DNA of 55,885 nucleotides from Acidobacteriota bacterium. GTDB lineage: Bacteria > Acidobacteriota > Thermoanaerobaculia > Multivoradales > JAHEKO01. The notes beneath the pieces were generated by a model. The model was not told where the DNA came from. It saw only the letters and a program-made list of their open reading frames with translations, and did no database searches. Positions 46,713 to 51,944 of this stretch are shown piece by piece. A program made the position numbers and the translations under genes. How positions within the stretch are numbered: position 1 is the first letter of the stretch; each line of letters begins with the position of its first letter. Where the stretch lies: positions 1-55,885 of the forward strand of contig JAJCXP010000139.1 in the NCBI GenBank assembly GCA_029263375.1. The letters run 5' to 3'.

Positions 46713-46809
46713 ATCGTAGGATGGCGACGGAACCGTGTCAATTGCGGGCTGGCCCCGTTTCGGTGGGCGTGTTTGCGCGAAACGGAGCGCCGCTCGATTC
46801 CGGTATCAT
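46713..46809. promoter_or_regulatory. Divergent -10 boxes for 46706 gene (TACGAT, minus) and cinA (TATCAT, plus), with an internal inverted repeat
   Basis: Hexamers 6 and 7 nt before the starts; CCGTTTCG-N15-CGAAACGG at 46755-46785. Confidence 0.5.
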
Positions 46810-46816
46810 CACGGCT

Positions 46817-48112
46817 ATGCGGGCCGCGATTCTCGCGGTCGGGTCCGAGCTGCTGGGAACCGACCGTCTCGACACCAATTCACTCCGGATCACGGAGACT
46901 CTCCACCGCTACGGCGTGGCGTTGACCCGCAAGAGCGTGGTCGGCGACGACCCGGAGGAGCTGGCGGCGGAGCTTGCCTATTCGATCGCTCGATGCGATC
47001 TGTTGGTGGTCACCGGCGGCATCGGCCCGACCTGCGACGACGTGACCCGGGAGGCGGTGGCGATGGCGCTCGGCCGGCGGCTCGTGCGCGACCAGGAGAT
47101 CGTCGAGGGGATCCGAGCGAAGTTCGCCAGCTTCGGACGCGAGATGCCGGACTCGAATGACAAGCAGGGCGATGTGATCGAAGGCGGCGTTGTCCTCCAG
47201 AACCATCGTGGGACCGCTCCGGGACAGCGCGTCGAACACTCCCGAGGCACCTTGTTCCTGCTTCCGGGGGTGCCGCACGAGGTCGAAGGGCTGATCGTCG
47301 GAGAGCTCGAGCCGTGGTTGAAAGAGCGCGGCTCGATGCCGATCGAGCTCGCCCACCTGAAAGTCGCGTGTGTGTCGGAGTCGAGCCTAGAGCATCTGAT
47401 CCAGCCCTACCGGGATCGCTTCGGCACCGTCGGTCTGTCGATCCTGTCGAGGCCCGGCGAGGTCCTCGTCAGACTGACAGGTGGCGAGCCGGGTTCCGAC
47501 GGCAGCCGAGGTCTTCGCGAGCGCGAAGCTTGCCTGGTGGATCTTCTGGGCGAGGCGGTCTACGCGCGCCGTCCCGAGCAGACCCTCGAGGCGACGGTTG
47601 GACAGTTGTTGCAGGCCGCCGGCTCGACCGTGGTCACCGCAGAATCGTGCACCGGGGGCCTGGTGGCCGAGCGCTTGACCCGCGTGCCGGGCAGCAGCGA
47701 GTACTTCCTGGGCTCGACCGTCACCTACTCGTACGAGCTGAAGGCGTCGCTCCTGGGCGTCGACCGGCGCGAGATTCAGCGGCATGGCGCGGTCAGCCGG
47801 GAAGTCGTCACGGCGATGGCGGAAGGGGCGCGGACCCTGCTTGCGGGGGACTACTGCATCGCTTTGAGCGGCGTGGCCGGTCCCGGTGGGGGCACCCCGG
47901 AGAAACCGGTCGGTACCATCGACATCGCCCTGGCCATGCCGGACGGCCCGACGCGGCATCTGCGAGTCCGCTTGCCGGGAGACCGCGGTCGAATTCGCGA
48001 GCAGGCCGCGCAGTGGGGCTTGGATATGCTGCGCCGCCGGCTGATCGGTGCCGTAGAGCCGGACGCTTCGTACCTCGCGCCCAGAACGGCCGAGGCAAGC
48101 CCGGTGAGCTGA
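46817..48112 (+). CDS. cinA: Competence/damage-inducible protein CinA (MoCF-like domain plus NMN deamidase PncC domain)
   Basis: AVGSELL, GGIGPTCDDVTR, GTAPG, LPGVP, TAESCTGGL, SGVAGPGGG. Confidence 0.94.
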   Translation: MRAAILAVGSELLGTDRLDTNSLRITETLHRYGVALTRKSVVGDDPEELAAELAYSIARCDLLVVTGGIGPTCDDVTREAVAMALGRRLVRDQEIVEGIRAKFASFGREMPDSNDKQGDVIEGGVVLQNHRGTAPGQRVEHSRGTLFLLPGVPHEVEGLIVGELEPWLKERGSMPIELAHLKVACVSESSLEHLIQPYRDRFGTVGLSILSRPGEVLVRLTGGEPGSDGSRGLREREACLVDLLGEAVYARRPEQTLEATVGQLLQAAGSTVVTAESCTGGLVAERLTRVPGSSEYFLGSTVTYSYELKASLLGVDRREIQRHGAVSREVVTAMAEGARTLLAGDYCIALSGVAGPGGGTPEKPVGTIDIALAMPDGPTRHLRVRLPGDRGRIREQAAQWGLDMLRRRLIGAVEPDASYLAPRTAEASPVS

Positions 48113-48678
48113 TGAGATTGTTCGTCGCCATCGAGCTGCCCGAGAGAGTCCGGGTCGCGGTGGAGGACCTCATCTCGAGGAGGCGGTCCGGCCTGCCCAA
48201 GGCCCGCTGGGTAAGCGGCTCCAGTCTTCACCTGACGCTGGTCTTTCTGGGGGACGTGCCCGAGCCGCGGCTGAGACCCCTCGGTGGCGCCCTGACCGAG
48301 GCGTGCGGGCGGCAGAGACCCTTCAGGCTCCAGCTCGAAGGGAGCGGTTGTTTTCCGGCAAGCGGCAAGGCGCGAGTCGCCTGGGTCGGGGTTCGAGGCA
48401 GTGCCGAGCTTGTTCGGCTGCAGGCGTCGCTAGCCGGAGCACTTCAGTCAGCGATCGGCTTCGAGCCCGAGAGGCGCCCGTACAGCCCCCACCTGACGGT
48501 GGGCAGGTGCGAGCCGCCATGGCCGGCGAGTGCTGCCAAGATCTGGTCCGAGGCGGTGAACGGCGATCTTGGCGAGGAGTTCCCGGTACCGACGGTAGGC
48601 CTGATCCAGAGCCGCCTGGGCGCGGCCGGTCCCACCTACACGACCTTGCATCGCGTCCCTCTTGGGGGAAAGTCGTGA
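48112..48678 (+). CDS. thpR: RNA 2',3'-cyclic phosphodiesterase (2'-5' RNA ligase family)
   Basis: MRLFVAI start, two HxT motifs (LHLTL, PHLTV), SRL...GPTY. Confidence 0.92.
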   Translation: MRLFVAIELPERVRVAVEDLISRRRSGLPKARWVSGSSLHLTLVFLGDVPEPRLRPLGGALTEACGRQRPFRLQLEGSGCFPASGKARVAWVGVRGSAELVRLQASLAGALQSAIGFEPERRPYSPHLTVGRCEPPWPASAAKIWSEAVNGDLGEEFPVPTVGLIQSRLGAAGPTYTTLHRVPLGGKS

Positions 48679-48750
48679 ACGGGTTGGGGGAGATGTTGTG
48701 AGCGGCTTTGGGGAGACGTCGTGAGCGGCTTTTGGGAGACGTCGTGAGCG
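48675..48750 (+). repeat. Three 23-bp tandem units, each encoding an 8-codon GTGA-coupled mini-ORF
   Basis: gtgaacgggttgggggagatgtt / gtgagcggctttggggagacgtc / gtgagcggcttttgggagacgtc / gtgagcg. Confidence 0.9.
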
Positions 48751-49346
48751 ACGTGCTGCTGCCGCTCGGGGCCTACCTGGTGGGTTCGATCCCGTTCAGC
48801 TTTGTCGTCGTCCGGCTCCTGCGCGGCGTCGATGTGCGTCGGGTCGGCAGTGGCAATGCGGGTGCGACCAATGCGCTGCGCGCGGCCGGGCTGGCGCCGG
48901 CGCTCGCGGTGCTTGTTCTCGATATCGGCAAGGGGGTCGTACCAGTGATGCTGGCCAGAGCATGGGGCGCCACTCCGACAGTGCTCGGAACGGTCGCCGT
49001 CGCAGCGGTCCTGGGGCATCTGTTCCCGATCTACATCGGATTCCGAGGGGGCAAGGGTGTGGCGACGGCGCTCGGGGCGTTCGGCGGGCTGGCGCTCTGG
49101 CCGACGATGACCGCGGCCGCCGCTATTCTGACGATGATCCTCTGGAAGCGCTACGTCTCGCTGGGCTCGATCGTCGGAATCGCGTTGGTGCCGTTGCTGA
49201 TGCTTGGATGGCAGCGACCGCTCTGGGAGGTAGGCGTCGCCGCGGCGATCGCAGTTCTGGTGGTGGCGCGCCACAGCAGCAACATCCAGCGGTTGCGCTC
49301 AGGCACGGAGCGGCGCCTGGGTGAGCGCGTCGGAGTTGCACGATGA
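48744..49346 (+). CDS. plsY: Glycerol-3-phosphate acyltransferase PlsY
   Basis: AYLVGSIPF, GSGNAGATNALR, LDIGKG, GHLFPI..FRGGKGVAT, HSSNIQRL. Confidence 0.95.
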   Translation: MSDVLLPLGAYLVGSIPFSFVVVRLLRGVDVRRVGSGNAGATNALRAAGLAPALAVLVLDIGKGVVPVMLARAWGATPTVLGTVAVAAVLGHLFPIYIGFRGGKGVATALGAFGGLALWPTMTAAAAILTMILWKRYVSLGSIVGIALVPLLMLGWQRPLWEVGVAAAIAVLVVARHSSNIQRLRSGTERRLGERVGVAR

Positions 49347-50356
49347 GGCGCGTCGGAGTTCTGGGCGCGGGCTCGTGGGGCACGGCTCTGGCGATTCAGC
49401 TGGCCAGGTCGGGGCTGGAGATCGACCTGTGGGCGCGCAATCCGACGCTGGCCGAGCAGTTGCGAGAGACGGGCCGGAACGAGGTCTACCTGCCGGACGC
49501 TCTCTTCCCGGATGGCCTGCGGGTGACCGACTCTCTCGAGCAGCTGGTGGGCAGCGACGCGCTGCTGATGGTGATTCCTTCGCACGGGTATCGAGCGGTG
49601 ATGCGCGACCTACTGGAGGTCTGGCCGACTGAGAAGGATCTGATCGTCGTCTCCGCGACCAAGGGGATCGAGACCGAAACGCTGGCTCGGATGAGCGGCG
49701 TGACCAGTGAAGAGGCCGAGAACGCCGGCTGCCGGCTGCGCTATGCCGTGCTTTCCGGTCCTACGTTCGCCACCGAGCTGGCCGCGGCTGTTCCCAGCGC
49801 CGCGGTGATCGCCTCGGAGGACGAGGCGCTGGCCGCCGAGCTGCGCGAGGCGTTCTCCGATTGGAACTTCAGGCTCTACTCGTCGAGCGACGTGGTCGGC
49901 GTCGAGCTGGGGGGAGCCGGCAAGAACGTGGTTGCGATCGCCAGCGGCGTGGTGACCGGCGTCGGATTGGGCCACAACACCACGGCCGCGCTGATCACTC
50001 GCGGCCTGCACGAGATCAGCCGGCTCGGCGTGGTGTGCGGTGGCGACCTTCAGACCTTCTCTGGACTGGCCGGTCTGGGTGACCTGGTGCTGACCTGTAC
50101 CGGCGGCCTGTCGCGGAACCGCCATACCGGTCTCGAGCTGGCCGCGGGCAAGAGCCTCGAGACCATCGAGGCCGAGACGTCGATGGTGGCGGAGGGTGTT
50201 CGCAACTCGCTCGCGATCAGTCGACTCGCCCATCAGGAGGGCATCGAGATGCCGATCACCGAACAGATGCGACAGGTGATCTACGAGGGCAAGGAGCCCG
50301 AGCTGGCGGTCGCCGAGCTGATGATGCGCGAGCGCAAGGCCGAAGCCGAACTCTGA
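49343..50356 (+). CDS. gpsA: NAD(P)H-dependent glycerol-3-phosphate dehydrogenase
   Basis: [41 protein letters not shown]...SRN. Confidence 0.96.
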
Positions 50357-50378: not shown

Positions 50379-51944
50379 ATGAGTGAAGTGTACGGGTCGC
50401 CGGCGGAGCGGCATCAGACGGTTCTCATACTGGACTTCGGCAGCCAGTACACCCAGTTGATCGCACGCCGGGTGCGAGAGAACCGCGTCTACTGCGAGAT
50501 CCGTCCGAGCGATCTCTCGGCGGCGGAGATCCGAGAGCGTGCGCCGGTCGGTGTGATCCTCTCCGGCGGACCGCAAAGCGTTTACGCCGAGGGCGCGCCG
50601 CCGATCGACGCCGGCATCTTCGACCTCGGTTTACCGGTGCTCGGTATCTGCTACGGCCTACAGGCGATGGCGCACGCGTTGGGCGGCGGCGTCGTGCCGG
50701 CGGCGGCGCGCGAGTATGGCCGCGCCGAGATTCGGCTCGATCGGCGCGACGGGCTGTTCGACGGTCTCGCCGAGCGCGAGACCGTCTGGATGAGCCACGG
50801 CGACCACGTCGAGCGGCCCCCGGCCGGGTTCGAGATCACCGCCTTCACCGGCAGCGCGCCGGTGGTGGCGATGCAGCACACGGAGCGGCGCCTGTTCGGC
50901 ATCCAGTTTCACCCCGAGGTGTCACACACGGTCTCGGGTGGTGAGGTTCTGCGCAACTTCCTCTATGGCATCTGCGGGGCGCGCGGCGACTGGGGGATGG
51001 CCTCGTTTCTCGAAGAGACGGTCGAGTCGGTGCGAGAGCAGACGCGCGGACGCAACACGCTGTGTGCACTCTCGGGCGGCGTCGACTCCTCGGTAGTGGC
51101 CGTGTTGCTCAAGAGGGCTCTGGGCGATCGGATGACGGCGGTCTTCGTCGATAACGGCCTGCTGCGCAAGGGCGAGGCGCACCAGGTCCTGCACGGTCTG
51201 CGTGACGGCCTCGGTCTGCCGGTCAAGATCGCACACGCTCAGGACCGGTTCCTCGGCGAGCTCGCCGGGGTCGAGGATCCGGAGCGCAAGCGCAAGATCA
51301 TCGGCAAGGTCTTCATCGACGTCTTCGCCGAGGAGGCGGCACGGCTCGACGACATGGCTTTCCTGGCCCAGGGGACGCTCTATCCCGACGTCATCGAGTC
51401 GGCCACCGGGCATGGGCCCGCCGAGGTGATCAAGACCCACCACAATGTCGGCGGTCTACCGGAGCGGTTGGGCTTCGAACTGGTCGAGCCCTTGCGGATG
51501 CTGTTCAAGGACGAGGTGCGTCAGCTCGGCCGTGAGCTCGGGCTGCCCGAAGAGTTCATCGGCCGGCATCCGTTCCCGGGGCCTGGGCTGGCGGTGCGGA
51601 TCCTCGGCGAGGTGACCCGCGAGCGCGCCGACCTGCTGCGCGAGGCGGACGCGATCTTCCTTCACGAGCTGCGCGAGCGCGGCCTCTACGACAAGGTCAG
51701 CCAGGCGTTCGCGGTTCTGCTGCCGGTGAACAGCGTCGGCGTGATGGGGGACTACCGGACCTACGAGAACGTGGTGGCCCTGCGCGCGGTCGAGACCCAG
51801 GACTTCATGACCGCCGACTGGAGCCACCTCCCGCACGACCTCCTCGGTCTGGTCGCGAACCGGATCGTCAACGAGGTGAGTGGCGTCAATCGGGTGGTCT
51901 ATGACGTGACCAGCAAGCCGCCGGCGACGATCGAGTGGGAGTGA
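50379..51944 (+). CDS. guaA: GMP synthase (glutamine-hydrolysing)
   Basis: [48 protein letters not shown]. Confidence 0.98.

Follow-up and report, generated by a model that had tools for sequence, protein, structure and literature searches.

The thpR-plsY junction described here lies in a window of 55,885 nucleotides, which is the whole of contig C139 of a 442-contig MAG (5.48 Mb, 95% complete, 67% G+C) whose closest named relatives, judged by PlsY, are uncultured Acidobacteriota and Thermoanaerobaculia MAGs. The Pfam-supported cinA (46721-48112) is followed by thpR (48112..48678, + strand), which codes for a protein of 188 aa in the RNA 2',3'-cyclic phosphodiesterase/LigT family (PF02834 at 7.9e-20, PF13563 at 7.2e-19). 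Downstream are plsY (48744..49346, + strand), coding for a glycerol-3-phosphate acyltransferase of 200 aa (PF02660 at 1.1e-49), then gpsA (49343..50356, + strand), the next gene in the coupled chain, coding for an NAD-dependent glycerol-3-phosphate dehydrogenase (PF07479 at 2.4e-51, PF01210 at 1.5e-40), and the Pfam-supported guaA (50379-51944). By direct reading, the cinA stop and the thpR ATG share 1 nt (TGATG, 48110-48114), and the plsY stop and the gpsA ATG form a 4-nt overlap (ATGA, 49343-49346). Thus, cinA, thpR, plsY, and gpsA are an unbroken overlapped chain, and the array described below is inserted in this chain. The ThpR C-terminus, PLGGKS-stop, aligns with the ALGGAG-stop, PLGGSK-stop, and ALGGAA-stop tails of relatives. 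PlsY is read from a GTG with GGGAG at 48734-48738, and its N-terminus (VSDVLLPLGAYLVGSIPF) aligns with that of relatives whose start is the overlap.

Between thpR and plsY, GTGA stop/start overlaps occur at 48675, 48698, 48721, and 48744, at a spacing of exactly 23 nt. TRF reports a single array at 48661-48750 on the + strand with a period of 23, 4.0 copies, 85% matches, and a score of 117. The array (consensus CTTGGGGGAGACGTCGTGAGCGG; direct-repeat family D1, spacing 23, 23) comprises the tail of thpR as unit 0 and three inserted units. Unit 0 is degenerate and corresponds to the last 14 nt of thpR (CTTGGGGGAAAGTC); therefore, it is the junction itself that is repeated. The first-pass annotation had described three 8-codon mini-ORFs that lead from thpR to plsY with GTGA at every junction, and the ORF and overlap coordinates agree with this description. 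Mini-ORF 1 (VNGLGEML-stop, 48675..48701, + strand) starts at the GTG that overlaps the thpR stop TGA (48676-48678). It shares the reading frame of plsY but is closed by the TGA at 48699-48701. Mini-ORF 2 (VSGFGETS-stop, 48698..48724, + strand) represents unit B, and mini-ORF 3 (VSGFWETS-stop, 48721..48747, + strand), whose TGA overlaps the plsY GTG, represents unit C. The same annotation had placed a GGGAG 5 nt before each following GTG. This holds for the GTGs at 48698, 48721, and 48744 (GGGAG at 48688-48692, 48711-48715, and 48734-48738), but not for the first GTG at 48675, which is preceded by GGGGGAAAG and lacks GGAG. The unit identities given there were reproduced as well: units B (48698-48720) and C (48721-48743) share 22/23 positions, whereas unit A (48675-48697, mini-ORF 1) and unit B share 18/23. 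Unit A is the most diverged and, on this comparison, appears to be the oldest unit.

Each mini-ORF joins the first 3 codons of plsY to the last 5 codons of thpR plus the stop and is thus chimeric. The head of plsY, GTG AGC GAC, recurs as GTG AGC GGC, and the tail of thpR, CTT GGG GGA AAG TCG TGA, recurs with changes as TTT GGG GAG ACG TCG TGA. The G-run heading the SD shifts by one base from G to T per unit toward plsY (TTGGGGG, TTGGGGG, TTTGGGG, TTTTGGG), with shrinking runs at 48664-48668, 48686-48690, 48710-48713, and 48734-36. By direct reading, a G-quadruplex formed from these spaced G-runs would not fit the canonical motif, for which loops of 12-20 nt are too long. A start of plsY at the TTG at 48708, which would add an N-terminal MGRRRERLLGDV extension, is unlikely, because relatives start at the overlap and, on direct reading, the TTG has no SD.

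The junction in related genomes

For comparison, 40 related genomes were searched for plsY (27 of 41 had a match when the own genome is counted), and 80 metagenome-contig and 80 species-genome loci were added. In 23 non-self loci, thpR lies directly upstream of plsY, and a single -4 overlap start (GTGA, ATGA, or TTGA) is available at 21 of these 23 junctions. The two exceptions are L019, with a +3 spacer, and L116, which is unreadable and has an apparently broken plsY frame. The three same-genus loci (L003, L004, and L005) run through a G-run (GGGGG) to one GTGA and from there straight into PlsY; their junctions read ...CTCGGGGGGGCCGGGTGA (ALGGAG-stop), ...CTCGGGGGCTCGAAGTGA (PLGGSK-stop), and ...CTCGGGGGCGCGGCGTGA (ALGGAA-stop). 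The ancestral state therefore is one overlap, which was amplified in this genome, and the array is a local tandem amplification of the native thpR-plsY junction. The proposal in the first-pass annotation that the junction was duplicated as a self-consistent module thus finds support, as relatives have one overlap against four here. None of the 23 relatives with a thpR-plsY junction has the 23-bp array. A search by PlsY identity for a closer strain reached 66% at best (58-66% among the related genomes, with best values of 55% among genome contigs and 48% among metagenome contigs). In L116 (positions 1150-1230; CAVXIV010000014.1, an Acidobacteriota MAG), the N-terminal region of plsY shifts frame a few codons past the thpR stop, which represents either a frameshift or an assembly error.

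TRF was also run over 186 non-self plsY loci, a number in which one locus from an unpublished genome (L020) enters as part of the denominator only. At thresholds of at least 2.5 copies and a period of at least 10, an array that touches the plsY start was found solely in L109 (OY970373.1, an uncultured Acidobacteriota MAG with 55% PlsY identity). This array, at positions 1133-1180 of the locus, consists of 2.9 copies of a 15-bp unit and is built on the TTGA that joins the thpR stop and the plsY start (GCCGGTTGACCCCC / GCCGGCTGGACCCCC / GCGGGCTTGACCCCG). In the sister genomes L110 and L112, the junction has only one such overlap, GTGA or TTGA. With a unit length divisible by 3, the L109 array stays in frame with plsY, to which it would add a repeat at the N-terminus (LTPAG WTPAG LTPAV...), and it creates no mini-ORFs. 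The thpR-plsY junction, which is rich in G/C-runs, has thus expanded twice independently with different units, which points to a mutation-prone site rather than a designed module.

Copy number and repeats across the genome

Positions 48300-49100 were compared with contigs (Logan, k=31) of the public run X1, a biofilm metagenome and possibly the data set from which the MAG was assembled. Four pieces cover the array: R1 matches 48300-48727 within a 1068-nt record (0 differences, depth 7.9), R2 is a 35-nt piece that matches 48698-48732 (0 differences, depth 20.1), R3 matches from 48703 onward within a 3119-nt record (0 differences, depth 9.92), and R4 is a 48-nt piece that matches 48703-48750 with 1 difference (depth 10). 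All 31-mers of the array in the contig are unique, and a genome identical to the contig would therefore yield one unbroken piece. If unit B were present twice, five 31-mers would be used twice and give a 35-nt piece of double depth at 48698-48732, and 18 new 31-mers would give a 48-nt piece equal to 48703-48750 save at 48733. The pieces in X1 agree with this model in place, length, difference count, and depth ratio. The X1 contigs imply a loop from unit B to unit B at about 1x depth that is absent from the MAG contig, and the depths correspond to about two B units per genome on average in this sample. Either one unit is missing from the contig, and the genome has four mini-ORFs and five GTGA overlaps, or the population is of mixed copy numbers; the copy number in the contig probably is not the sole state, or not the true one. 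As an alternative explanation of R4, a SNP that converts unit C to B would reduce R2 to 1x depth, add a 43-nt piece, and break R3 at 48734, and none of these was seen in the X1 contigs, from which filtering may drop records. The contigs of run X2, from another study, cover 48300-48401 and 48440-48590 only, outside the array, and those of runs X3 and X4 cover next to none of the stretch.

These data also bear on the possibility that the array or its copy number was made by the metagenome assembler and that the real junction is single. Assemblers often err at short tandem repeats, the window belongs to a MAG of many contigs, and its copy number is at odds with the k-mer graph of X1. However, this disagreement points toward more copies, not fewer. 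The uniqueness of the array 31-mers also speaks against an artefact, as does the divergence of the units, which is unlike stutter products. Moreover, in an independent assembly (Logan), one piece spans unit A, unit B, and the start of unit C without a single difference, and another runs from unit C into plsY. An assembly artefact thus is hardly credible. The first-pass annotation had named a single junction in the reads as grounds for dismissing the array; the X1 contigs show the array instead, probably with an extra unit.

Chains of mini-ORFs as such are not unusual in this genome. Counted on both strands, NTGA-linked chains of ORFs of up to 20 codons include 5124 single links, 279 two-chains, and 37 three-chains, and with 37 such chains a chain of three mini-ORFs is not improbable in itself. 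Tandem arrays are not rare either, given that the genome contains 118 with periods of 10-60 and at least 2.8 copies. What sets the chain at the thpR-plsY junction apart is its origin from a tandem repeat and its precise attachment to two Pfam-supported genes. A dispersed repeat family could be ruled out, because unit B is confined to the array in the 5.48-Mb genome: a search of all 442 contigs on both strands with up to 4 mismatches returned this array's two units and one match with 4 mismatches on C51, which is at chance level. Across the genome, 16 NTGA-linked unit pairs share at least 75% identity. The four longest of those elsewhere (on C141, C427, C96, and C234) do not visibly bridge two long ORFs, as far as ORF reading alone can tell. 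Three of them are tandem repeats that form linked mini-ORFs of 17-24 codons. On C141 (reverse-complement coordinate 7309) the units are of 62 bp with 97% identity and have NTGA as their first letters, on C427 (reverse-complement 12941) NTGA-led units of 71 bp with 90% identity lie just upstream of a Fur-like ORF, and on C96 (reverse-complement 2833) NTGA-led units of 50 bp with 86% identity follow a 422-codon open frame.

Origin, translation, and selection

The best explanation of the array, to which we assign a probability of roughly 70%, is a minisatellite (VNTR) that was generated locally by slippage and probably is still changing, with the relay of mini-ORFs as a built-in by-product that renders the insertion harmless. 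Replication slippage or unequal exchange would have amplified a 23-bp segment that contains the thpR stop, the plsY start (GTGA), and the upstream ribosome-binding purines. With each copy of this segment come a start codon, a stop offset from it by one base, and an SD-like motif. As 23 is 2 modulo 3, every extra copy would then automatically yield an 8-codon ORF: for a unit length L, the next TGA lies at L+1 from the GTG and shares its frame for any L of 2 modulo 3. Units with L = 0 modulo 3 fall in the frame of plsY and extend it, and only L = 1 modulo 3 breaks the hand-over. Each mini-ORF would begin on the preceding stop and end on the following start, and the last copy would provide plsY with its former kind of initiation region; with both proteins unaltered, the insertion would be tolerated. 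The head-to-tail local copies, their identity gradient, and the putative B/B junction in X1 are all as expected of a slippage minisatellite, and the gradient (18/23 between A and B, 22/23 between B and C, identity between B and B) fits repeated recent duplication. A tolerated slippage product, which the first-pass annotation had offered as a fallback, is the best fit. As a counterpoint, unit A has diverged at 5/23 positions; if the array is neutral, it must be partly old, yet its starts, stops, and SDs are intact.

The mini-ORFs are probably translated, as their initiation signals suggest. In the same-genus genome G001 and the same-family genome G015, the 3' end of the 16S rRNA reads ...GGATCACCTCCTTTCT and contains the anti-SD CCUCCU. 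The only match to the 16S gene in the MAG itself (C279:15228-16047, locus L191) is partial and then continues as N. With the tail of G001 and G015, used because the 3' end of the own 16S is unassembled, the SD/anti-SD duplexes for the GTGs at 48675, 48698, 48721, and 48744 have energies of -8.4, -11.3, -7.8, and -7.3 kcal/mol, respectively. Corresponding values are -6.5 for gpsA, -7.8 for guaA, and -8.6 to -9.9 kcal/mol for the single junctions of the same genus. In this genome, GGAG precedes 485 of 1949 candidate overlap starts compared with a background of 10%, although the candidate set is noisy, given how readily long open frames arise at 67% G+C. The position of GGAG peaks at -12 to -9 before these starts, and in the array units it is at -9. 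Two routes would probably bring ribosomes to the mini-ORFs, namely re-initiation following termination and new binding at the SDs.

The energies also allow an adaptive uncoupling to be weighed, according to which the duplication was kept for moving the ribosome-binding site of plsY out of the thpR coding sequence. Within thpR, this site is fixed by the conserved LGG codons of the tail, and outside it would be free to evolve a canonical GGAG. Consistently, G-runs are all that the thpR tail and the junctions of the same genus offer (GGGGGAAAG, GGGGGGGCC, GGGGGCGCG), and GGGAG is present in all three inserted units. However, the new site of plsY (-7.3 kcal/mol) is no better than the one embedded in thpR or those of the relatives. 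One extra unit would also have been enough, which leaves three or four unexplained. We regard such an uncoupling as very unlikely.

In published reporter experiments, translation was coupled across 4-nt overlaps, and almost none of this coupling was left at gaps of about 20 nt (Huber et al., 2023; PMC10666635). Re-initiation was often aided by an SD (Huber et al., 2019; PMC6728339). If coupling is lost over such gaps, the 65-nt insert would break the coupling of thpR to plsY unless the mini-ORFs relay ribosomes. A relay through the mini-ORFs is mechanistically plausible, and their translation may carry some of the thpR-plsY coupling over what otherwise is a 65-nt gap. The -4 overlap in 21 of 23 relatives hints that coupling of thpR to plsY matters, and a non-relaying insert of 65 nt might then have been counter-selected, given the near loss of coupling that PMC10666635 describes for a gap of about 20 nt. 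The relay could even be a selected feature, a chain of -4 overlaps kept to hand ribosomes from thpR to plsY-gpsA, in which slippage in the number of units tunes coupling and thus makes a contingency locus, or copy-number rheostat, for the first steps of phospholipid synthesis. Such a function would agree with the conservation of the -4 overlap in relatives, with the dependence of coupling on overlaps or very short gaps stated in PMC10666635, and with short ORFs whose role is to 'deliver' ribosomes to the gene coupled behind them, for which PMC12548453 (section 11) gives MIRUs as a natural case. It would also agree with the GTGA and SD kept at every junction despite 6 substitutions and with the unit number, which apparently differs between the contig and run X1 or within X1.

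Several observations argue against a selected relay. The first-pass annotation had pointed out that the substitutions spare GTGA, SD, and frame, and the starts, stops, and SDs are indeed intact. In a simulation of 200,000 trials, two copies of unit B received substitutions at random, 5 in the first and 1 in the second, and all starts, overlapping stops, and SD cores survived in 12.6% of the trials, or in 20.0% with the thpR stop fixed. With survival in 13-20% of trials, the preservation of the signals therefore is not significant; mild purifying selection on the relay may be compatible with this figure. The variation in copy number equally is expected of any neutral VNTR. plsY retains its own SD of ordinary strength for fresh initiation and need not depend on coupling. 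We know of no stoichiometric relation between thpR and plsY. The 23 relatives lack the array, and the 15-bp array of L109 is unrelated, an in-frame extension that lacks mini-ORFs. Signals of regulatory RNA were not detected either: Rfam at E values up to 1 has no family in or near the array (one pRNA match at chance level, 48233-48272, is outside it), the fold of 48640-48790 (-63.4 kcal/mol, z -1.56) is unremarkable, and within 48300-49000 there are no promoter-like and no terminator-like sites. The ribosome relay or rheostat put forward in the first-pass annotation, for which nothing speaks beyond plausibility, with no array in relatives, P at 0.13-0.20, and no regulatory RNA signal, is accordingly unlikely. 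Quite unlikely, too, is its stronger form, a selected contingency locus driven by slippage, with each 23-bp unit as one serial step of termination and re-initiation. If it were true, gain and loss of units would set the share of thpR-engaged ribosomes that reach plsY-gpsA, and the population could vary its investment in phospholipid synthesis with no change of promoter or protein. Under the preferred reading as a slippage minisatellite, the relay would be a by-product of what was duplicated and not a device selected for regulation.

Comparison with known systems

Among known systems, the array comes closest to the MIRU-VNTR loci of mycobacteria (Supply et al., 1997, as cited in PMC3635867), which it resembles without being a member. 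According to PMC3635867, MIRUs are minisatellites, mostly intergenic in presumed polycistronic operons and with measurable changes in copy number, and PMC12548453 describes their insertion at start codons, with an internal ORF coupled at -4 nt and minimal impact on expression. Common to both are short tandem repeats between genes of an operon, in a copy number that varies in MIRUs and may vary here, and a small ORF coupled at -4, and the array likewise has internal ORFs coupled at -4 between operon genes. However, MIRUs are dispersed at many loci and thought to be mobile, whereas this unit derives from a native junction and occupies one locus. The hosts also differ, an actinobacterium for MIRUs and an Acidobacteriota MAG for the array. 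MIRU units, at approximately 40-100 bp, are larger than the 23-bp unit with its 8-codon ORFs.

The array shares with coupling by termination and re-initiation (PMC6728339, PMC10666635) the canonical NTGA overlap and an upstream SD at each step, with 4-nt overlaps at four GTGA junctions and duplex energies from -7.3 to -11.3 kcal/mol. The known cases couple two real genes directly, whereas here three (perhaps four) 8-codon ORFs lie between the genes. If the reading as a slippage minisatellite is right, a 4-nt overlap can be copied any number of times with neither gene broken, because the duplicated piece brings its own start, stop, and ribosome-binding site. We know of no measurement of the efficiency of serial re-initiation through several very short ORFs.

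A leader-peptide or uORF attenuator likewise has a short ORF immediately upstream that overlaps the start of a gene. In contrast to attenuators, the array has no terminator or antiterminator structure, no conservation in relatives, and no regulatory run of codons, and its ORFs are chimeras of the ends of the flanking genes. A leader-peptide attenuator or riboswitch was rejected on these grounds together with the lack of an Rfam match, the fold z of -1.56, and the lack of terminator-like sites and, in a search at the array, of inverted repeats.

MIRUs aside, a literature search (mostly without subscription journals) found no paper on a native stop/start junction that had been duplicated in tandem to give relay mini-ORFs. 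The locus opens no long-standing question, and MIRUs are in print as a similar case. For genome annotation, the rows of tiny ORFs that such arrays create ought not to be annotated as genes, and MAGs from short reads may understate the copy number of the arrays. The array itself is a natural construct for the efficiency of re-initiation through serial, very short ORFs.
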